Assembly (NCBI GenBank): GCA_028284445.1 | Contig: JANQRS010000026.1 | Location: 41,653 to 105,652, forward strand | DNA from: Calditrichia bacterium | GTDB taxonomy: Bacteria > Calditrichota > Calditrichia > RBG-13-44-9 > J075 | Direction: 5' to 3' | DNA: 64,000 nt | Shown here: one piece after another, positions 3,518 through 16,561 of the stretch | How positions within the stretch are numbered: position 1 is the first letter of the stretch | How the letters are laid out: every line of letters begins with the position of its first letter | Program-made: the position numbers and the translations under genes | The notes under the pieces: model-generated | The model's input: the letters and a program-made list of their open reading frames with translations, nothing else | Database searches by the model: none | What the model was told of the DNA's origin: nothing

Positions 3518-4981
3518 CTATGGCCTGACGGCGCGAAGCGCCTTTGCCGCAGCGTTTCTCTCTTCGTCAGTTAAGATCCAAAATACCGCAATAATGAGTG
3601 ATAGGGCCACCAAAAGGAGGCGCAGCCATATCGATAAATCCAGCAAGTAATGTGCCATCATCAACCCGATCAATCCAACCGAGATTTTCGCGATCCGGCC
3701 CCATTCAATAGGTATCGGAAAGATTCGGTCAGAAACGATAAATATTGTGAGCGCCATGGTCATATAGCTGATCAAGGTGGCCCAGGCAGCGCCCCAAATG
3801 TGCAGATGAGGCAGCAAAATGATGTTGGCTACGATGTTTAAAACCGCACCGCTGCCGGTAAAGATAATCATGTATTTGCTTTTCTTTGTGATGTAAAAGC
3901 CGGGTGTCAATATCACATAAATACCGTAAAAACAATATGATAGTAGGATGATAGGGATGATGTCGATTGCCGACCAAAAGGGTTCGCCCAGGAAGTAGAA
4001 GCTGTCGAAGTATTTGAATGTCAGGATATCGCGAATGAAAAAGGTGCCGAGCAGGGTGATAAAGCCGGCCCCAAGCAGAAAGTAGCTGAGTACCCGTGAG
4101 TAAATCTGACGGGCGCCGTCTTCCTTGGCGATTTTCAGGAAGAAGGGTTGCCAGGCATTCTTGAAGGCATTAATGAGCAGTAACAACACAGTCCCGAATT
4201 TATAATTGGCCCCGTAAATGCCCACGGCGTCTTTGTCGAGTATAACCGGAACGATTAGGCGGTCAATCATTTCAATCGCTGTGAAGGCAATTCCATGCGG
4301 CAAAAACGGCAGTCCAAAAGCGAGCATTTCCTTGCACAGCGGGATGTCGATTTTCAAGTTCAGATAGCGAACAATGATTGGCAACATCACCAGGAAGTTG
4401 ACAATCGAGGCAGTCAGGCTGGTGTAGAGAATGCCGATGACGCCGGTCTTCAGGAAGACCACGAAATAGATGTTCAGACTGAGCTCCAGCAGGAAACGAA
4501 AGACCCGGAATGAGGTGAACTGGATGGCTTTTTCTTCCGCCCGCAAAATCAGATATGGCAAATTGCCAAGCGCATCAAAAAACAGGATGAAGCCGCCGAG
4601 TCGGACAAAATTTGCATAATCCGGACTCTTCAGTATCAAATCCGCCAGTGGTTCACTAAAGGTAACCAGGATAACGGTGGTGACTAAGCTGGTGCAAAGC
4701 AGCACCACAAAAGTCGAGGAAAAAACGGTTTTGCGATCGCGCTCACCGAGAAAAAAGTAGCGCAGCATCGCGGAATCCATCCCGTAGGTATAGAAGAAAT
4801 ACATGAAGCCCAGGAAGGTGAAAATGACCACGAAGTCGCCAAAATCGCTGGTGGTTTTAATGTATTCGGGATTGGTATAGATAGGAATGAGCAGAAAACC
4901 GGAGAGTTTTTGTACTGCCGTGCTAATGGCGTAGATCGCCGAATGCTGGGCCAGTCGCCCGATTTTCTTGAAGATGCTCAA
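3518..4981 (-). CDS. Oligosaccharide flippase (Wzx/MOP family polysaccharide biosynthesis protein)
   Basis: About 12-14 hydrophobic segments; N-terminal Y.IS..VQKL.GFLLIPIYT and VGIYGANYKFG motifs. Confidence 0.85.
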   Translation of the reverse strand: MSIFKKIGRLAQHSAIYAISTAVQKLSGFLLIPIYTNPEYIKTTSDFGDFVVIFTFLGFMYFFYTYGMDSAMLRYFFLGERDRKTVFSSTFVVLLCTSLVTTVILVTFSEPLADLILKSPDYANFVRLGGFILFFDALGNLPYLILRAEEKAIQFTSFRVFRFLLELSLNIYFVVFLKTGVIGILYTSLTASIVNFLVMLPIIVRYLNLKIDIPLCKEMLAFGLPFLPHGIAFTAIEMIDRLIVPVILDKDAVGIYGANYKFGTVLLLLINAFKNAWQPFFLKIAKEDGARQIYSRVLSYFLLGAGFITLLGTFFIRDILTFKYFDSFYFLGEPFWSAIDIIPIILLSYCFYGIYVILTPGFYITKKSKYMIIFTGSGAVLNIVANIILLPHLHIWGAAWATLISYMTMALTIFIVSDRIFPIPIEWGRIAKISVGLIGLMMAHYLLDLSIWLRLLLVALSLIIAVFWILTDEERNAAAKALRAVRP

Positions 4982-5739
4982 AACGTCAGTTTTAGTCCGT
5001 CGTATGCCAGATGAATGTCCGGAGGCAGCTGCGCTTCCGTTTCCTGATGCATTACACTATGTGCGATGTGAGTAAAATAGGTTGTTTTTGCCCCGATGCG
5101 TTGCGCTGCTTCAATTGCCTGCTCGATAGAAAAGTGCGTTGGATGCGGTTTGTGGCGCAGGGCGCCGAGAACCAGCACCTCGAGATCCTGCAAGCGCTCG
5201 AAAGAACTTTCCGGTATAGTACTGACATCGGTGCAGTAGGCAAAAGCACCAACCCGATATCCAAAAACAGGCATTCGCCCGTGCAACAGCGGTATGGGGG
5301 TGATATCGATGCCGGATACCTGGAAGCAATTTTTATCAATGACATGAATATCAAGCCGGGGAATTGTGGACTTGCTTTGGTTCTCACCGAAGGCGTAAAT
5401 GAATACCCTCTTGATATTGTCCATGGTGTCCTGCATGCCATAAAGCGGGATACTGGTCTTGTTTAGAATGTTGAAGCTGCGCAGGTCGTCCATGCCAAGA
5501 ATATGGTCAACATGATGATGCGTGTAGATGACAGCGTTGAGATATTTGACATTGGCGCGAAGCATTTGTTGGCGATAGTCTACGGAAGTGTCAATGAGGA
5601 TTTGCGTGCCGTCGATTTTCAGGAGGGCGGAAGTGCGCAGGCGCTTGTCTTTGCTATCGGTCGAGCAGCAGACGCGACAATCGCAGCCAGCGATAGGCAC
5701 TCCCATCGATGTCCCACTACCCAATATTTCAACTTCCAT
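4978..5739 (-). CDS. PhnP-like MBL-fold metallo-hydrolase
   Basis: LGSGTSMGVP, CxCxxC, THHHVDHILG (HxHxDH) and THIAH motifs; ATG at 5739. Confidence 0.9.
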   Translation of the reverse strand: MEVEILGSGTSMGVPIAGCDCRVCCSTDSKDKRLRTSALLKIDGTQILIDTSVDYRQQMLRANVKYLNAVIYTHHHVDHILGMDDLRSFNILNKTSIPLYGMQDTMDNIKRVFIYAFGENQSKSTIPRLDIHVIDKNCFQVSGIDITPIPLLHGRMPVFGYRVGAFAYCTDVSTIPESSFERLQDLEVLVLGALRHKPHPTHFSIEQAIEAAQRIGAKTTYFTHIAHSVMHQETEAQLPPDIHLAYDGLKLTF

Positions 5740-5914: not shown

Positions 5915-8900
5915 TTAGGAATCCGAACTTGCAGATAATTGAGACAATTGGTCGTACAGTTTTTGTATACTTTCCTTTAATTCGTCATCTGAGATTTCAT
6001 GTTTATGAACTGCATATCCCAAATCCGTGACGGATTGCCTAATCGAATTTGTGAGGTGGTCAAAGTTTCTAGAAGCCAGTATTGCCAGGGAATCTAATAT
6101 TTGCAAAAAATCATCGCGTTCCTTAATACCTTCAAAGGATATTGTTCCATCGGCAAGAGTAAAATGACTTATTGGTTTGATCTCGAGAATCTTCTCAAGG
6201 TCGTCGATACCTACCCTGGCTTCGCGGATGCGTTCAGCGATAGCTAACAAGCTATCGCATTTCCTAATCGTATCGCGTGGAATACCAAAGGACATTAGGT
6301 TTATTGCATTTATGAGGCTGGGATCAACAATAAAATCTCGTGATTTAAGATAATTGATAATGATTTTTTCATTAGACTCAAATGGTAGTGGAGGAACATG
6401 CTCGATATGATCAAATGCACTGTCCATTTCGGTTTTTGTTCTCTCACTTTTATCCATAAATGCGTTATATGAATCGGAAGCCAACGATAAATAATAATAA
6501 ACACTTCGAATCTCGAACATGCTTCTCATTCTGATGATTGCCTTTCTGAGATCTGAAGCATCAGTAATCCTATCTAATTCATCAATAGCAACGATCAACC
6601 GCCAGTTACTTTTCGATTGGCCAAAGGCTCCGGCATTGAGCCGTTCTATGCAAAATCTGATAAAGCTTCGATAGTCTTCAATGGATGTTGTCCAGGATTG
6701 ATCTTCCTCTTGCTTTTTCGACAGTTCTCGACTCAATAAAAAAGATCCAAAGAAAATTGTTGCAGTAGAGAGAAGTACAATAATATGTGAGTTAAGAGTT
6801 TGAGAGTCGTTGCTTCCATGTTTATAAAAGTCAACTGGATAAATGAAATATGAGCCAATTGTTGTATGAGATGTAAATATCTCGACTAACCAATTGAAGA
6901 GAATCATGACAATAAATGCCAACGCTACGAACTGCGTTAATCTCAGCCAATAGATTCTTCTATATGTTGTCGTATCGTAGCCAAACAAAACTACAAGACA
7001 CCGCTCATAAAGAAGTTCCAGGTGAGGATTGTTTTTTGGCGATCGTCTGAGCCAAAATCCAAGGTCTTTTCTCTGCAATACTATCGAGGCTGCTATCCAC
7101 ATAGAAATTGTGACAATAAGTGTAAGGCCTACAGGCATCCATATGACCGATGAGTCCAATCTCAAAATAGTTGATTCTGCGACCTGGGTTAAAACATAAA
7201 TTAAGATAGCTACGCCCAATACGAGGCGGATTGCTAAATTGTGGGCATCTTCTCGAAGCTCTCTTTCTGCCATTGAGTTAGCCCCGATATGATTACTAAT
7301 TCGATTCTCTAATATCTGCGCAACCCTGCTTTGCACACCTCGTACAATTGGAACCTCATCAAATTTGGTCGGTGCTTGCAACCAGACACCAATGAAATCT
7401 TCATCGCTATTTTGAGGGATATTCTCATTCACCAGCTCTTTTAGAATTTCGGATTTACCAACTCCTCTTGGGCCAATCAACGCAACCGTATTCCAGCCTC
7501 TTTTAGCATACGCTCTCAAATTAACCAATATGTTGCTTCGTCCTTGAAATTGTGTGGGACTTTCAGGCGGGCGACCTGCACGAACTCCGCGGCGATTGGC
7601 AACGTCTTCTGCCTGGGCGATTATCGCAGAGCGATTTAACAACAGCCGGCCGCCCCAAAGGCCAATAAGGAGTGATAAAGCGACGAAGGGAAAAACAAAT
7701 GTAGATGCCAAAATTGTGCTAAACGATGCGCCGAATCCTTCCGACATTCTGGCTTGAGAAATTACATATCCAAGCACGGATGGTGCATCGGGAGTACCTC
7801 CACCATATAATTTGACAGCTAAATGGTGTAAAAGTTTTTGCCTGGTTTCTTTATTCTCAATGTCTTTAAATCGTTCTATGTAATGCGACAACAACTTAAA
7901 TTCTTTGGGGTCTTCTTCACTAAGTTTTGAATCATCTTTTAGATAGTGCTCGTCTGACCAAACAACTGAAATCGGTGAAGACAATATCATAAGATGTTTT
8001 TGAACTCTGTCAAATTTATCTTCATTGCTTCCAGAACCTGTTCCAAGTGATTCTATAAAGCTAATCAATTCAGGACTGAGGAGTTGAATTGCCAAACCTG
8101 CTTGACCACCTGATTTTAGAAGGGTTGATAAATCCCCTCTAGTAATACCACACTCCAGAAATCTGTCGCGAAAAAGCTCTGCTCGTTTGAAGGCTTCATC
8201 TTTATCAACAACCGCAGGTTGCTCAGACGGTTTATCACTATTGTCCTCGTCTTCGGAGGGTTTAGGTACGATTTTAATATTTTTGACAAAAAAATCTACA
8301 AGTCTTGAATTGTTTTTGTCAATTTTGGAATCATAAATCTCAAAAAGTCCAGTGGAAACGAGGTCAGGAGTTTTAGAATCCGACATTAACTCCAGATCAG
8401 GGATGAGACTGCTTAGTTCTTGACAATCTATTAATTTGAAGAGCACTTCTATTCGTTCGCGTGAATTGGCCAACTCATATAGAACGGGCAGAGCATTCGA
8501 ATCGAAGTCATATTGTTCATTCGCAATACTTATCTTGCCTGAATTCTCCAGAGCAACTTGTTGATATAATAAAAATGTAATACCTGATTCAAAAACAAGA
8601 GGTAGCGACAATTGAGATATTAACATGTTACTTGAGTGAAAATTAGTGATGCGAGGAAAGACGCCATTCATGTTTCTCAGGAACTGCTTTTCTTCCTCCT
8701 TATCTTCGCGCGTGTTTTCGATTGGGCCGTAGTAATACCCTGAGGAGCGCACTGGCCTTAAGCCATACGTTCTTGCTAGATTTATTTGCGCATATTTCAG
8801 GACTGTTTCATCAAGTTCACGATGCCTTTCTTCAGAATCGAGGCCTGGCAGGCCGATACTGCTACGAGAAAAATCGACAGAAATCGGGTGCCGCCATTCC

Positions 8901-9880
8901 ATCCGTTTTACCAGAAACTCAATCCTTTCCTCTGCAGACATGACACGAGTTCCGAGCAGGAGGTTATTCGTAGTTGAAAGATAGTCAAATTGCGAATAGC
9001 CCGTATTGGATTTCATCTCATAGGACCAATCTATTCCGTAGTACCAGCGGTTTAATGACCTCAGTCTCTCTTCTCTTTTTCTTCTTTTCTCAAGTTCTTG
9101 AAGGGTGGCGTAAAAATTTGTCCTGTAAAAATCGTTTAATTCTATTTCAGATGCTATGCGGTAAAATCTCTGTATATACTCCGGCTTTAATTTCGCATTA
9201 ATATCCTGAGCCAAAACGTACGTTTCGTCATCAAGTTGGGCAGGTGTGGTTCGTTGCACTAACGTACTTTGCACCAAAGATTTTCCGCTACCGAGACAAA
9301 CCACAAATAGGCCAAAGCAAATAATCAATAAAAGCCCTTTAGATTTCTTTTGTTTAAAATCTATGACTCTCGGAAACTCAGCTATAAAGAAGCTGGCAAA
9401 AATGATAATTAGGATAGGAATAGCTATCCAGTATGGAAGCGCCGGTTCGACAGTTGTTTCGATTTGCACATCCATAATTGGACTGAGAGGTCCACCCTGG
9501 CCTAAAAGCATAATGAAAATCGATGCTAATGCTAAACTCCAAAGAGATCTCTCAAGTCTATTCGCTTTCCATGAGAACGTGATTATAAAACCAACCACTA
9601 AAGCGCCAAATGAGAGAGCGAGAATTGGGTAGTAAGAAACCGTAGGCTCTGCACCAGCAATAATCATTGAATGACCTGCAGTGAGTACAAAGATAGCGCA
9701 GCAGCCCCAACCCATTGCTAAATCTGCATAACCATTGAAGTGCCTCTTCGTCTCAATTGGTTCCTGGGCCGAAGGTGCAAATATTTTCCTTAGCCAGTCG
9801 TGTAATGCATTGGCTACTAATGCAAATGTAGAAATGGCGAGTTGAATAAAATTAAGAATTTCGATGAGACTGTCTTGCAT
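5915..9880 (-). CDS. Large multi-pass membrane protein with a KAP-family-like P-loop NTPase domain
   Basis: Walker A GPRGVGKS (7451-7474) and Walker B LIVAIDELDR (about 6569-6598), separated by about 4 predicted TM helices; about 7 further N-terminal TM helices; visibly AT-richer than the flanks. Confidence 0.7.
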   Translation of the reverse strand: MQDSLIEILNFIQLAISTFALVANALHDWLRKIFAPSAQEPIETKRHFNGYADLAMGWGCCAIFVLTAGHSMIIAGAEPTVSYYPILALSFGALVVGFIITFSWKANRLERSLWSLALASIFIMLLGQGGPLSPIMDVQIETTVEPALPYWIAIPILIIIFASFFIAEFPRVIDFKQKKSKGLLLIICFGLFVVCLGSGKSLVQSTLVQRTTPAQLDDETYVLAQDINAKLKPEYIQRFYRIASEIELNDFYRTNFYATLQELEKRRKREERLRSLNRWYYGIDWSYEMKSNTGYSQFDYLSTTNNLLLGTRVMSAEERIEFLVKRMEWRHPISVDFSRSSIGLPGLDSEERHRELDETVLKYAQINLARTYGLRPVRSSGYYYGPIENTREDKEEEKQFLRNMNGVFPRITNFHSSNMLISQLSLPLVFESGITFLLYQQVALENSGKISIANEQYDFDSNALPVLYELANSRERIEVLFKLIDCQELSSLIPDLELMSDSKTPDLVSTGLFEIYDSKIDKNNSRLVDFFVKNIKIVPKPSEDEDNSDKPSEQPAVVDKDEAFKRAELFRDRFLECGITRGDLSTLLKSGGQAGLAIQLLSPELISFIESLGTGSGSNEDKFDRVQKHLMILSSPISVVWSDEHYLKDDSKLSEEDPKEFKLLSHYIERFKDIENKETRQKLLHHLAVKLYGGGTPDAPSVLGYVISQARMSEGFGASFSTILASTFVFPFVALSLLIGLWGGRLLLNRSAIIAQAEDVANRRGVRAGRPPESPTQFQGRSNILVNLRAYAKRGWNTVALIGPRGVGKSEILKELVNENIPQNSDEDFIGVWLQAPTKFDEVPIVRGVQSRVAQILENRISNHIGANSMAERELREDAHNLAIRLVLGVAILIYVLTQVAESTILRLDSSVIWMPVGLTLIVTISMWIAASIVLQRKDLGFWLRRSPKNNPHLELLYERCLVVLFGYDTTTYRRIYWLRLTQFVALAFIVMILFNWLVEIFTSHTTIGSYFIYPVDFYKHGSNDSQTLNSHIIVLLSTATIFFGSFLLSRELSKKQEEDQSWTTSIEDYRSFIRFCIERLNAGAFGQSKSNWRLIVAIDELDRITDASDLRKAIIRMRSMFEIRSVYYYLSLASDSYNAFMDKSERTKTEMDSAFDHIEHVPPLPFESNEKIIINYLKSRDFIVDPSLINAINLMSFGIPRDTIRKCDSLLAIAERIREARVGIDDLEKILEIKPISHFTLADGTISFEGIKERDDFLQILDSLAILASRNFDHLTNSIRQSVTDLGYAVHKHEISDDELKESIQKLYDQLSQLSASSDS

Positions 9881-10229
9881 GCAAGGACCTGCAAATTTAT
9901 CCGATTCCGCTTTATATATAATTATAGCAATATTTGGGGTTTTTGTCGCAATAATTTTTGAAAATATTTAGCATTCTAGAGGTGTGTTCATCTCGCCAAA
10001 GGTGTTTTGTCGTAAAAATATGCTCCTAATACATTTGCCGTGACGACCAAAAGCTGACGGTTCTTAACGAAGGCTTATTAAATATATGCCAGAGCAGAAC
10101 CGTGGAATATGGCAATGAATGTTTTTGTTTTCGGTCGTATCCGGATGAGGGTCTATTTAGGCGTATGCCAGTCCCTACAGATTGCTGTGCCGATTAGTGA
10201 ACAAATTTTCATCTTTTTTCAAAAAATTC

Positions 10230-10258
10230 TTGACAAGTGCACGCTTGCACACTATTAT
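10230..10258 (+). promoter_or_regulatory. sigma70-type promoter of lexA, with a palindrome in the spacer
   Basis: TTGACA (10230-10235), 17 bp, TATTAT (10253-10258); GTGCA-CGCT-TGCAC at 10237-10250. Confidence 0.8.
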
Positions 10259-10325
10259 AGATGGTGAACCTATGTATACGCTGGTTCCCTAACTGTTTTT
10301 GTGCGATGAACTTGAAAGGAATTTT

Positions 10326-10946
10326 ATGAAAGGCCTGACCAAGCGCCAGGAGGAAGTGTTACAATTTATTTCCGGTTATATTGCTGATGCCGGTTTTCCA
10401 CCGAGTTATCAGGAAATTGCCGACAATTTTGACATTGCTTCCAAGCATGGCGTCGTTCGACATTTGGATGCGCTCGCCCGCAAAGGGTATATTGAAAAGA
10501 CCGGAACGACCGCACGCAGCCTGCGCATATTGGATGAACGCTATCAACCGATGTCTGCGGACATTATGACTTTACCACTGGTTGGTCGTGTTTCTGCGGG
10601 TTTCCCGATTCTGGCAGAAGAAAACATCGACGACCATATTGCCGTTCCGCGGCGATTGATCAAATCTGAAGGCCGCTATTTTTCTCTGCGAGTACAGGGA
10701 GATAGTATGGTAAATGCCGGCATTATGGATGGCGATCTGGTGATTGTACAATCAACCAGTGTTGCTCAGGCCGGGCAGATTGTTGTCGCCTTGATTGGTG
10801 AAGAGGTAACGGTTAAGCGGCTGATTGTTGAGGAAAAGCGGAAATATCTGAAGGCGGAAAACCCGGCCTACCCGGATATCGTACCGCAAACGGACTGGCA
10901 TATTCAGGGTCGTGTTGTTGGCTTGATACGGGATACCGTTAACTAA
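10326..10946 (+). CDS. lexA: SOS transcriptional repressor LexA
   Basis: LTKRQEEVL...GFPPSYQEIA wHTH, VSAGFP Ala-Gly cleavage site, GDSM catalytic Ser, VTVKR catalytic Lys; GAAAGGA RBS before ATG 10326. Confidence 0.97.
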   Translation: MKGLTKRQEEVLQFISGYIADAGFPPSYQEIADNFDIASKHGVVRHLDALARKGYIEKTGTTARSLRILDERYQPMSADIMTLPLVGRVSAGFPILAEENIDDHIAVPRRLIKSEGRYFSLRVQGDSMVNAGIMDGDLVIVQSTSVAQAGQIVVALIGEEVTVKRLIVEEKRKYLKAENPAYPDIVPQTDWHIQGRVVGLIRDTVN

Positions 10947-10947
10947 C

Positions 10948-11508
10948 ATGCGATTATTGCAGAGACAGGATGTCACCAAAACAGATGGCAAGGCAAATTC
11001 CCTGCTCGATAGGACGGCAACTGGTTTTCCGGGTCTTTCGGCGGGGAATAGGGACAGTGGGGAATCCATGACTGGTAAGAAAATATTGAAAATGACCCGC
11101 GGATTTCCGGATAAGCGTGCGCGTGAAGAGTTTCTGCGTTTGCCGCGTGCCGAATTCCTGATCGAAGATCTGGCTAAAAGCGGGGCTGACGAGATCGGCA
11201 AGATGGTTGTAAACAGCACCATGGATGTTTATGATCGCTACAGCATGCAGGTTGATAATGAACAAATGGCTGGCTGTGGTATCCAGACCGGCGATTTTGT
11301 CGTTATTCAGCAGAAAAAGCGCTATCACGATAATGACGTTGTTGCTGTTAAGGTTGGTGAACAGGTATTTCTACGCCGTTACTTCCAAAATGGAAGCCGC
11401 GTGCGTCTGGAAGGATCGAATAACCGAAAACAGACCATGATTCTGGATGTAAACACCCCCGGTTTTTCAGTGCTGGGAAGTGTTGTCCAGGTGATACGTG
11501 AATTATAG
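10948..11508 (+). CDS. LexA/UmuD-like S24 domain protein lacking catalytic residues and DNA-binding domain; alternative start at 11068
   Basis: Aligns by eye with the adjacent LexA CTD: FSLRVQGDSM vs YSMQVDNEQM, GDLVIV vs GDFVVI, VTVKRL vs VFLRRY, GRVVGLIR vs GSVVQVIR. Confidence 0.8.
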   Translation: MRLLQRQDVTKTDGKANSLLDRTATGFPGLSAGNRDSGESMTGKKILKMTRGFPDKRAREEFLRLPRAEFLIEDLAKSGADEIGKMVVNSTMDVYDRYSMQVDNEQMAGCGIQTGDFVVIQQKKRYHDNDVVAVKVGEQVFLRRYFQNGSRVRLEGSNNRKQTMILDVNTPGFSVLGSVVQVIREL

Positions 11509-11528
11509 TCGATCGCTCCTTTTAAGAG

Positions 11529-11615
11529 CCGCAGAGTTCTTTCAATTATTTGCGTAGTGATTACAGATAATAGCCTGTAACACTCTAATCATTGAGATAG
11601 CTCTGCGGTTTTTTT
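11529..11615 (+). terminator. Extended stem-loop plus T7 tract ending the lexA operon (terminator or small structured RNA)
   Basis: CCGCAGAGTTCTTTCAAT pairs with ATTGAGATAGCTCTGCGG; inner GTGATTACAG/CTGTAACAC helix; followed by TTTTTTT. Confidence 0.65.
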
Positions 11616-11649
11616 ATTGGGTAGATTGACTAAAAAAACAGAGGAAAAG

Positions 11650-12093
11650 ATGAGTGTTTCAGCGATTCCTAGCGGTCATCATAGTGTAGAGCCATACCTG
11701 ATAGTTGATCATGTTGAGGATATGGTGGCATTTTTACAAAAGGCCTTTGGCGCAGAAGTCATTGAACAGCTAACAAAAAAGAACGGCAAAATGAATCATG
11801 CCCAGGTGAAGATCGGCGATTCAATGTTGATGATGGGGTGTTCAGGGCCTGAGTTCCCGGCCTTGAAAGCGATGATTCATATTTACACGCCTAATGTTGA
11901 CAAAATGTATACAAATGCCCTGGCGGCCGGGGCGACCACGCTAATGCCTCCGGAAGATCAATTTTACGGTGATCGCAGTGCCGGTGTACAGGGACCGCAG
12001 GGAAATTACTGGTGGATAGCGACACATATCGAAGATGTTAGCTCGGAAGAAATGCAGCGCCGCAATATTGCCAGGGAAGAAGCCGCAGAGTAA
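11650..12093 (+). CDS. VOC/glyoxalase (PhnB-like) family protein
   Basis: SVEPYLIV, HAQVKIGDSMLMMG and DQFYGDRSAGVQGPQGNYWWIATH motifs. Confidence 0.9.
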   Translation: MSVSAIPSGHHSVEPYLIVDHVEDMVAFLQKAFGAEVIEQLTKKNGKMNHAQVKIGDSMLMMGCSGPEFPALKAMIHIYTPNVDKMYTNALAAGATTLMPPEDQFYGDRSAGVQGPQGNYWWIATHIEDVSSEEMQRRNIAREEAAE

Positions 12094-12139
12094 TTACTAC
12101 TAAAGCCTAACAGCTCCGAATGTCAAATCGAGGAATTTT

Positions 12140-12715
12140 ATGAAACGTTGTAAATGGGCGCCTGAGAACAATGAGCTTTATCAGAAATATCATGATGAAG
12201 AATGGGGCGTACCGGTTTATGATGATCAACTGCTATTCGAATTCTTAATCCTGGAAGGTGCACAAGCTGGTCTCAGTTGGGAAACCATACTGAGAAAACG
12301 GGACCATTACCGCAAGGTATTCGATGAGTTTGATCCGGTGAAGGTGGCTGCTTACAAGGAGAAGAAAATAGAGGCCTTGTTGCAGGATCCCGGTATTGTA
12401 CGGAATCGATTAAAGGTAAATGCCGCGGTGACAAATGCCCACTGCTTCCTCGCGGTTCAGAAAGAGTTTGGCAGTTTCCGAGACTATATCTGGCAATTCG
12501 TGGGTGGACAACCCATTCAAAATAGTTGGCAATCCATGAAGGATGTGCCGGCCAATACCGCTGAATCGGATGCCATGAGTAAAGATTTAAAAAAACGAGG
12601 CTTCAAATTTGTCGGGACGACTATCTGCTATGCATTTATGCAGGCCGCCGGTCTGGTCAATGACCACACAACTGACTGTTTTCGCTATCATACGGTAAAA
12701 GCTCTGTCAACATAA
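12140..12715 (+). CDS. tag: DNA-3-methyladenine glycosylase I
   Basis: RCKWA, YHDEEWG, LEGAQAGLSW, VRNRLKV, GFKFVGTTICYAFMQAAGLVNDH..C. Confidence 0.97.
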   Translation: MKRCKWAPENNELYQKYHDEEWGVPVYDDQLLFEFLILEGAQAGLSWETILRKRDHYRKVFDEFDPVKVAAYKEKKIEALLQDPGIVRNRLKVNAAVTNAHCFLAVQKEFGSFRDYIWQFVGGQPIQNSWQSMKDVPANTAESDAMSKDLKKRGFKFVGTTICYAFMQAAGLVNDHTTDCFRYHTVKALST

Positions 12716-16237: not shown

Positions 16238-16561
16238 ATGAAAATGAAGACGCCAACCACCGGCGAAGCCGATAGCTCAGCCAATGCTGCTGAGGACGGA
16301 ACCAATAAAGACATCATCCTTGAATTGTTTCAAGTGCTGGAAGGGCAGCGATCGTCCCTCATTTTCTACAGCCATACCCTGGAATGCGATATCTGCCTGG
16401 TTAACACGGCACTTGCTGATGTGGAACAGCAAAACATGACATGTCCTGTATACACCACAGACGAATTGGCTTACATCCTCACCCTCTCACAAATGGACCT
16501 AAAGCGGTATCATTATCTGAAATCGAGGACCGAAGCGCAGGTTGTGGCTGTGGGGAGTTGA
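16238..16561 (+). CDS. Hypothetical protein, 107 aa
   Basis: ATG downstream of a near-consensus promoter; the upstream extension of the listed ORF runs through a terminator and AT-rich intergenic DNA. Confidence 0.55.
   Translation: MKMKTPTTGEADSSANAAEDGTNKDIILELFQVLEGQRSSLIFYSHTLECDICLVNTALADVEQQNMTCPVYTTDELAYILTLSQMDLKRYHYLKSRTEAQVVAVGS

Follow-up and report, generated by a model that had tools for sequence, protein, structure and literature searches.

A catalytically inert paralogue of the LexA C-terminal domain is conserved beside lexA in Calditrichota

The lexA gene of a Calditrichia bacterium is followed by a second gene, here called S24d, whose product resembles LexA's C-terminal domain (CTD) but carries none of the features by which LexA binds DNA or is cleaved. 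Both genes lie in a stretch of 64,000 nucleotides of contig JANQRS010000026.1 (the window). We show that S24d is a phylum-wide pseudo-peptidase that has the LexA CTD fold and is under strong purifying selection, and that it lacks the DNA-binding domain of winged helix-turn-helix (wHTH) type, the Ala-Gly bond at which LexA is cut, and the catalytic dyad of Ser and Lys. The protein probably tunes the response to DNA damage by binding a partner, without catalysis. Among the candidate partners, we tentatively favour LexA itself.

S24d (11068-11508, + strand; 146 aa) is contained within a longer open frame of 186 aa (10948-11508), whose sole Pfam match is to PF00717 at frame residues 96-180 (41.4 bits against a cut-off of 23.3, with model positions 34-116 covered). 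The protein also matches the LexA model TIGR00498 (55 bits, E = 8e-15), below its curated cut-off of 110.95, and the UmuD model NF007621 (32 bits), below a cut-off of 110. BLASTP aligns S24d with the adjoining LexA at 25% identity over 88 residues (E = 1e-8). The original prediction, made from the sequence before any database search, had described the second open reading frame (ORF) as related to the LexA CTD and devoid of a wHTH, and both statements hold. Pfam detects no DNA-binding domain (PF01726 wHTH) in S24d, and the N-terminal 18-20 residues are disordered instead. Searches of PHROGs return only generic ‘UmuD-like’ (43.7 bits) and repressor families for S24d, and PADLOC yields no match for S24d or its neighbouring genes.

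Structure prediction places S24d with LexA as well. The AlphaFold model of the window protein has a predicted local distance difference test (pLDDT) score of 80, with values above 90 in the core and below 50 for residues 1-18. The top Foldseek matches are LexA CTDs, with root-mean-square deviations (rmsd) of 1.5-2.0 Å over 88-90 residues and E values of 2e-8 to 1e-6, and UmuD' (rmsd about 5 Å) and lambda CI lie far behind. When the profile of the S24d family is compared with structure chains, LexA is matched at 1e-14 and UmuD at 5e-6. The model of P0020, a member of the majority type described below, is likewise confident in its core, whereas residues 1-39, with the conserved N-terminal arm, have pLDDT values below 50.

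The limits of the gene could be established by comparison with relatives. Homologues of S24d are 138-157 aa long and start at a Met equivalent to position 11068, and the nucleotides from 10948 to 11067 are only 64% identical to those of L001, a locus from a 91%-identical relative. Substitutions in this segment are spread evenly over the three codon positions (15/13/15), whereas they concentrate at third positions in S24d (9/6/69) and in lexA (14/9/84). The homologue starts and the flat substitution pattern therefore identify 10947-11067 as a non-coding spacer and 11068 as the start of S24d, and they rule out the 186-aa ORF from 10948 as the gene. The original prediction had correctly given a protein of 146 aa from the ATG at 11068, but its statement that the second ORF begins 1 bp after the lexA stop applies to the open frame and not to the gene, which is separated from lexA by 121 nt. 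Its further suggestion that an upstream ATGFP motif could make the product a substrate for cleavage in trans fails, because that motif belongs to the non-coding stretch.

Two of the three signature changes that had been predicted for S24d are confirmed. Gln66 (codon 11263-11265) replaces the nucleophilic Ser, such that GDSM becomes NEQM, and Arg103 replaces the general-base Lys, such that VTVKR becomes VFLRR. The third, a change of the cleavage loop from VSAGFP to MTRGFP, was assigned to the wrong segment. MTRGFP (residues 9-14) is part of a disordered, unconserved tail formed by residues 1-20, is out of register with the loop, and is confined to the window protein and, as MTRGFA, to P0001, which L001 encodes. 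What is left of the strand that holds the cleavage site in LexA is found at residues 21-31 (EEFLRLPRAEF), where MAFFT and profile alignments both set LPLVGRV of LexA opposite LPRAEFL (residues 25-31). The family profile aligns without gaps to residues 75-197 of Escherichia coli LexA. The positions of the LexA Ala-Gly pair are variable or gapped in the family, and the window protein reads LPRAEFL-IEDL, with no Ala-Gly.

These losses extend across the family. Column statistics were compiled for 99 sequences, with Ala-Gly (Pro+7/+8) and the spacing from Pro to the ‘Ser’ position counted in 95 of them. The Lys position is Arg in 97 of the 99 members and Lys in none, and Ala-Gly occurs at the LexA position in 3/95. 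The Ser position is unconstrained (Gly 58, Ala 15, Ser 14, Arg 7, Gln 1, Thr 1 and three other singletons). Near-invariant residues specific to the family have appeared, namely Asn49, Phe22 and Asp64, the last lying opposite Gly117 of LexA and present in 94/99 members. A majority subtype (74 members) has a LexA-like strand, EFYDIPLLGEV, and the LexA spacing of 42 residues between Pro and the ‘Ser’ position, whereas a minority subtype of 19 members that includes the window protein has LPRxEF and a loop shorter by two residues. Members that retain Ser occur in both subtypes and always pair it with Arg at the Lys position, as would be expected if Lys had changed to Arg early and Ser had then been lost several times.

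Two sets of unusual proteins were also encountered. The family members P0158, P0160 and P0174 carry Ala-Gly exactly at the LexA position (IPLLGMVRAGDP, IPLLGQVRAG..) together with Ala at the ‘Ser’ and Arg at the ‘Lys’ position; their Ala-Gly may have persisted from a LexA ancestor, or it may be cut in trans. P0019 (453 aa), P0032 (1064 aa), P0085 (979 aa) and P0052 (704 aa) are large multidomain proteins in which S24 domains stand two or three in tandem, with GDSM mostly kept and the general-base Lys replaced by Arg, or by Gln in one repeat (VVVRRL, ATLRRF, ATLQRF), although one repeat of P0052 keeps Lys. Judged by composition, these four look like another class of Lys-to-Arg S24 proteins from outside Calditrichota.

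The family as a whole was delimited with an exhaustive HMMER search and a profile search, which recovered about 99 full-length relatives of S24d. Family members, which consist only of an S24 domain, score at least 96 bits in the profile search, and the first full-length LexAs score at most 70. All named members come from Calditrichota (Calditrichales, Caldithrix sp., a metagenome-assembled genome (MAG) labelled Caldithrix abyssi, and Calditrichia MAGs). They are listed in databases as ‘hypothetical protein’, as ‘S24 domain-containing’ or, wrongly, as ‘SOS-response transcriptional repressor LexA’. Between the window and L001, the ratio of nonsynonymous to synonymous substitution rates (dN/dS) is 0.023 for S24d and 0.042 for lexA, with dS saturated.

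S24d is located directly 3' of lexA in all 17 Calditrichota-type lexA loci that could be read (the window, L001, L002, L005, L006, L008, L009, L010, L012, L014, L016-L019 and L020-L022), and the genes that flank the pair differ in every lineage. The spacer between the two genes ranges in relatives from a few nucleotides (3-19) up to 172 nt, and the open frames overlap in L020-L022. As a reciprocal control, 80 metagenome lexA loci were retrieved with the window LexA as query and searched for a second S24 ORF within 2.5 kb. The three loci whose LexA is 73-74% identical to the query, a level typical of Calditrichota, all carry S24d abutting lexA (125-141 bits against the family hidden Markov model), whereas no second S24 ORF lies within that distance in any of the 77 loci of other phyla, whose LexA is 38-45% identical to the query. 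The original prediction had named as tests whether the tandem is conserved, whether dN/dS falls below 1, and whether homologues are frameshifted or mostly keep Ser and Lys. The comparisons favour it on each of these points, with the tandem present in 17/17 Calditrichota loci against 0/77 elsewhere, a dN/dS of 0.023, intact ORFs, Ser in 14/99 members and Lys in 0/99.

The two genes co-diverge, with S24d changing faster: over pairs of genomes, LexA declines from 92% to 53% identity and S24d from 91% to 27%. Calditrichota LexAs score 31-54 bits against the S24d family profile and UmuD scores 29, whereas most of the LexA-length proteins of other organisms in the hit set score above the resident LexAs, the top 60 of them at 66-89 bits. 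A recent duplication of the resident lexA is thus unsupported as the source of S24d. Because the family profile is no closer to resident LexA than to foreign ones, these scores indicate a paralogue that is ancient or acquired.

The signals that surround the pair in the window are consistent with a single operon. Its features are as follows.

10197-10212, + strand: candidate distal LexA box, GTGAACAAATTTTCAT, with one good half-site (GTGAAC) and one degenerate half.
10230-10258, + strand: sigma-70-type promoter of the lexA operon (TTGACA, 17 nt, TATTAT).
10264-10279, + strand: GTGAACCTATGTATAC, a GAAC-N4-GTTC-type sequence and candidate SOS box (LexA operator), just 3' of the -10 hexamer. Bacillus subtilis uses this box too.
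10326-10946, + strand: lexA, encoding a complete LexA of 206 aa with wHTH and S24 domains, VSAGFP cleavage site, GDSM Ser and VTVKR Lys.
10947-11067, + strand: intergenic spacer between lexA and S24d, 121 nt, non-coding though open in the S24d frame.
11068-11508, + strand: S24d, 146 aa, catalytically inert LexA CTD paralogue.
11524-11620, + strand: probable intrinsic terminator of the lexA-S24d operon, a long hairpin followed by seven U.

The lexA product itself is an ordinary LexA. It scores 215 bits against TIGR00498 (cut-off 111) and matches both PF01726 (wHTH) and PF00717, and the Ala-Gly, Ser and Lys residues are retained by all ten Calditrichota LexAs that were compared. The promoter agrees with the consensus at 11 of 12 positions and is the top-scoring site of the region, and its arrangement is shared by L001, L005 and L008. 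In the same three loci and the window, TAGTGAACAAAT... recurs at the equivalent place 5' of lexA. The proximal box reads GTGAACYTATGTATAC in L001, L005 and L008 and forms a perfect palindrome, GTGAACTTTAGTTCAC, in L002-L003, while only its 3' part is present in L004, at a contig end. An exact match to GTGAACNNNNGTWYAC occurs just once in the 64 kb, at the GTGAACCTATGTATAC site. A separate palindrome of 14 bp, GTGCACGCTTGCAC, lies within the promoter spacer (10237-10250); its arms are kept in L001 (GTGCACGTCTGCAC) and are not conserved in relatives further away. Another factor might use it as a second operator.

The + strand of the spacer at 10947-11067 holds nothing that resembles a promoter or a terminator, and RNA structure there is not significant (z = -1.0). 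The hairpin 3' of S24d (11524-11613), in contrast, is about 90 nt long and nearly perfect, with a minimum free energy of -42.7 kcal/mol (z = -5.8; 0/200 shuffles fold equally well), and it is unique within the window. An Rfam scan of 9900-12200 gave a single chance match below threshold, and none for the hairpin. Because a promoter and GAAC-type boxes precede lexA, no signals intervene between the genes and a terminator follows S24d, we infer that lexA and S24d are carried on one transcript from a promoter predicted to be under LexA control. The window DNA was matched in a coral metagenome only, and no RNA run containing it was found.

Given this arrangement, LexA ranks as the likeliest partner of S24d, because the adjacency of the two genes is strict and often coupled, the β11 strand is retained, and mixed dimers between LexA and its CTD are known. 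The short spacers and overlapping frames suggest translational coupling and stoichiometric co-production. In the reading that we favour, tentatively and from sequence comparison, S24d is a LexA-binding modulator that is co-produced with its partner. The retained β11 edge strand would join it to LexA, and the resulting ‘one-headed’ LexA:S24d dimers would resemble the natural singly cleaved LexA/CTD intermediate. Because activated RecA (RecA*) could not destroy S24d, the ratio of S24d to LexA would rise during damage, and a higher share of S24d might weaken or delay renewed repression and so tune the threshold or the shut-off of the SOS response. The pair Asp64-Arg103, which replaces Gly117 and Lys156 of LexA, might form a structural salt bridge that fills the dead active site.

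Heterodimers of LexA with LexA CTD are known as natural species (PMC3159453). The Pseudomonas aeruginosa LexA dimer is held by antiparallel pairing of β11 (V201, I202 and R203, with G130) and by a hydrophobic cluster of I106, F110, F111 and I202 together with a cation-pi contact between R204 and F110 (PMC11787620). When these positions are traced through the alignment of the 99 family members, the β11 equivalents are kept, namely V142 (V57 L28 I11), I143 (I54 V16), R144 (R91) and G71 (G93), as are the equivalents of I106 and I202.

Several observations weigh against LexA as the partner. The equivalent of F110 is polar or basic (R45/Q17/K11), as is that of F111 (K22/L15/Q11), with Thr51 and Met52 in the window protein, and the equivalent of R204 is Glu; because the F110/F111 cluster is polar or basic, the canonical LexA-type interface is only half present. 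S24d is just 25% identical to the resident LexA domain, and its family profile favours foreign LexA-length proteins. Operon membership is by itself no proof of physical interaction, and the direction of any effect of S24d on the SOS response is a guess. When their overall charges were compared, S24d and the LexA domain showed no clear sign of complementarity. The heterodimer that had originally been proposed therefore finds support in the β11 pairing residues and not in the hydrophobic interface cluster.

The first alternative is that the dead protease cleft itself binds some other ligand, a peptide or otherwise, such as the cleavage-site strand of LexA in trans (a substrate trap that would protect LexA), an 84-aa protein encoded near the pair in some relatives, or a nucleic acid. 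We judge this account unlikely. Arg103 (97/99) and the family-specific Asp64 beside it (94/99) would be explained, as would the face formed by Lys/Arg99, Tyr/Phe101 and Arg103 that lines the former substrate cleft. The highly conserved N-terminal motif E-F-Y-D-I-P-L-L-G falls in a stretch with predicted flexibility, which would suit a docking element, and both canonical LexA surfaces are partly remodelled. The argument is nevertheless purely inferential, and the family shows no global charge signature (median pI 6.1, core +1).

A second alternative, also included in the original prediction, is a RecA* decoy, in which S24d docks uncleavably in the RecA* groove as the LexA CTD does, competes with LexA and damps or shuts off the SOS response in the manner of DinI or non-cleavable LexA. 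The pocket of LexA that receives F203 of RecA includes F111, L113 and V153 (PMC9926225) as well as V79, V82 and V146 (bioRxiv 10.1101/2023.10.30.564768), and the acidic patch D150, D151 and E152 faces K232, R243 and K245 of RecA (PMC9926225). Charge reversal at the Glu152 patch impairs RecA-dependent cleavage (PMC9926225), and non-cleavable LexA binds RecA* (PMC3159453). All six pocket positions are hydrophobic in the S24d family; however, this is weak evidence because the same residues form the fold core, and the arm that would complete the pocket is modelled at low confidence. In 74/99 members the strand that precedes the cut site survives as IPLLGEV, and 53/95 have the LexA distance of 42 residues between Pro and the ‘Ser’ position.

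The acidic patch argues the other way. Glu152, invariant in 10/10 Calditrichota LexAs, is replaced by Arg (48) or Lys (41) in 89 of the 99 family members, the Asp150 position is Gly in 82/99, and the Asp151 position is Glu in 41 and Asp in 17; in the window protein the three read Gly97-Glu98-Gln99. Loss of the Glu152 charge is nevertheless among the four changes of the LexA mutant crystallised as PDB 1JHE, which counts for the decoy; that mutant is in the cleavable conformation. Against the decoy, the cleavage-site region is remodelled and shortened in the subclade of the window and is modelled by AlphaFold at low confidence. Occupancy of RecA* by S24d, as first proposed, is thus favoured by the hydrophobic pocket and opposed by the change of Glu152 to Arg or Lys in about 90% of members, and we consider it doubtful. 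Judged by alignment, S24d keeps about half of the surface by which LexA dimerises and about half of the one by which it binds RecA*, and the remainder of each is remodelled.

A third alternative is suggested by the polymerase genes that lie near the pair in many Calditrichota, and assigns S24d to translesion synthesis as a UmuD-like protein that, with no need of cleavage, would serve a Y-family polymerase (the second polymerase IV (Pol IV) paralogue) as subunit or regulator. S24d has the size and architecture of UmuD (an S24 domain with an N-terminal arm) and its ‘UmuD-like’ PHROG match. Among the 14 loci for which genes were called, 7 have a gene for the 84-aa protein (weak DUF6504) close 3' of the pair, at 150-700 nt where measured, and in some a gene of about 100 aa (92-114 aa) comes after it. 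In 4 of those 7 loci a Pol IV-type polymerase of 400 aa comes next (in L018, a fragment of 168 aa). L014 has a dnaE2-like gene beyond it, and SOS-box-like motifs precede the unit in L009 and L014. The polymerases, however, are of the DinB/Pol IV type (316 bits) and not UmuC (113 bits), and they belong to a separate transcription unit. No polymerase resides beside the pair in the window, L001, L005, L006, L008 or L016, whereas lexA is always adjacent, and S24d is nearer to LexA than to UmuD both in score (55 versus 32 bits) and in structure (rmsd 1.5-2 versus about 5 Å). An accessory role of the UmuD kind stays among the alternatives because of the 84-aa/Pol IV unit in relatives, although the invariant partner is lexA, and we rate it as distinctly improbable. 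The original prediction had stated that no umuC, imuB or dnaE2 follows. By tblastn, no Y-family polymerase is detectable in the 64-kb window, where dnaE2 was not searched for directly, and the statement did not anticipate the Pol IV and dnaE2-like genes of relatives.

The conserved unit of the 84-aa gene, the 92-114-aa gene and the Pol IV gene was noted at 6147-8255 in L009, 5585-7064 in L012, 5748-7575 in L014, 6863-7565 in L002, 5694-5948 in L017 and 5675-5929 in L019. In the second Pol IV paralogue SIDEAY is replaced by SLDDAY and HNPALTR is found at the C terminus, and the 84-aa protein is very well conserved. The window retains of this unit only a homologue of the protein of about 100 aa (16238-16561). 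The unit may represent an undescribed translesion cassette.

The weakest alternative, that S24d is a functionless, decaying duplicate of lexA as its lack of both catalytic residues, of Ala-Gly and of a DNA-binding domain might imply, can be set aside as already refuted, because intact ORFs in about 99 clusters across the phylum, purifying selection (dN/dS 0.023 and the 9/6/69 codon-position pattern), new invariant residues (Asn49, Asp64 and Arg103) and a fixed position in 17/17 loci are contrary to recent decay. What stands is a conserved, non-catalytic and non-cleavable LexA paralogue that has no DNA-binding domain and is predicted to be co-expressed with lexA.

Several other features were noted around the pair. 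A gene for a 1321-aa protein (5915-9880, - strand) lies between a gene of the metallo-beta-lactamase fold and lexA. Its product looks rich in hydrophobic stretches that may span the membrane and shows a weak P-loop match (AAA_16/AAA_22, below cut-off), with no match in PADLOC or PHROGs. Because the gene is absent from the otherwise syntenic L001, it is a lineage-specific insertion. On the other side, a glyoxalase/VOC-family gene (11617-12093, + strand) is located between S24d and tag (3-methyladenine glycosylase I, 12140-12715); this gene is missing in L001, where tag is directly 3' of S24d. In L019, a metagenome contig, lexA is called at 4391-5046 as two ORFs, a DNA-binding part of 64 aa and an S24 part of 124 aa that overlaps the start of S24d; the cause is a frameshift or else a fault in the assembly.

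The switch formed by LexA and RecA* is among the best studied in bacteria, and the blocking of LexA cleavage is pursued as a strategy against resistance. In the literature library that was searched, no description of the S24d gene was found. Taken broadly, the proposal is that the lexA operon of Calditrichota encodes a RecA*-proof mimic of the C-terminal cleavage product of LexA, which acts through one-headed LexA dimers or as a trap for the LexA strand or RecA*; we regard this as plausible, though on balance short of probable. If it is true, S24d would be a built-in memory or threshold element of the SOS switch, and thus a layer of SOS control that is undescribed in other phyla. It would be nature's own ‘non-cleavable LexA domain’, present throughout a phylum and made together with LexA. 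The identity of its partner would reveal how a pseudo-enzyme tunes the sensitivity or shut-off of the SOS response, and which LexA surfaces suffice for which interaction. The family also corrects the annotation of proteins labelled ‘hypothetical’ or, wrongly, LexA. The question can be tested, because the MAG labelled Caldithrix abyssi encodes a family member and all three proteins are small and look soluble. Caldithrix abyssi is a cultured species.

Among known systems, the LexA CTD is the closest (E. coli LexA 75-202; PDB 1JHH, 1JHE and 8GMS). S24d shares its fold and keeps the GIxxGD turn, the ...V-I-R of β11 and the LPLVG-type strand, and it resides in the operon of lexA itself under predicted common SOS control. 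It differs from LexA in having no wHTH, no Ala-Gly, a free Ser position, Arg in place of Lys, Arg or Lys in place of Glu152, and a polar dimer cluster. UmuD and UmuD' resemble S24d in that each is an S24 domain of about 140 aa with an N-terminal arm and no DNA-binding domain, and in SOS regulation, which for S24d is predicted. UmuD, however, has an active Ser60-Lys97 dyad and a Cys24-Gly25 site, undergoes RecA*-dependent cleavage and is encoded with umuC, whereas S24d has neither dyad nor site nor umuC, and the similarity is much weaker, at 32 bits (cut-off 110) and an rmsd of about 5 Å.

Laboratory variants of LexA that cannot be cleaved (S119A, K156A and G85D) and the natural, singly cleaved LexA:LexA-CTD heterodimer are, like S24d, LexA-domain species that resist inactivation by RecA*. 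The S119A variant binds RecA* (PMC3159453), and the LexA CTD pairs both with itself and with full-length LexA (PMC3159453; PMC11787620). These are mutants of LexA itself or short-lived intermediates of it, whereas S24d is a separate, anciently diverged gene at 25% identity with remodelled surfaces.

DinI, RecX, gp7 of phage GIL01 and DdrR of Acinetobacter are small proteins that tune LexA or RecA* by binding and not by catalysis, as is proposed for S24d. Several of them are SOS-induced. None of the four is known to be homologous to S24d, to have an S24 domain or to be encoded in the lexA operon. DinI and LexA use common elements of the RecA groove (PMC9926225). A more distant parallel is SipA of Streptococcus pyogenes (PDB 4N31, a distant Foldseek match), a catalytically inactive signal-peptidase homologue of the same clan that has taken a non-enzymatic role. 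SipA belongs to the S26 family, is extracellular, serves pilus assembly and is unrelated to the SOS response.

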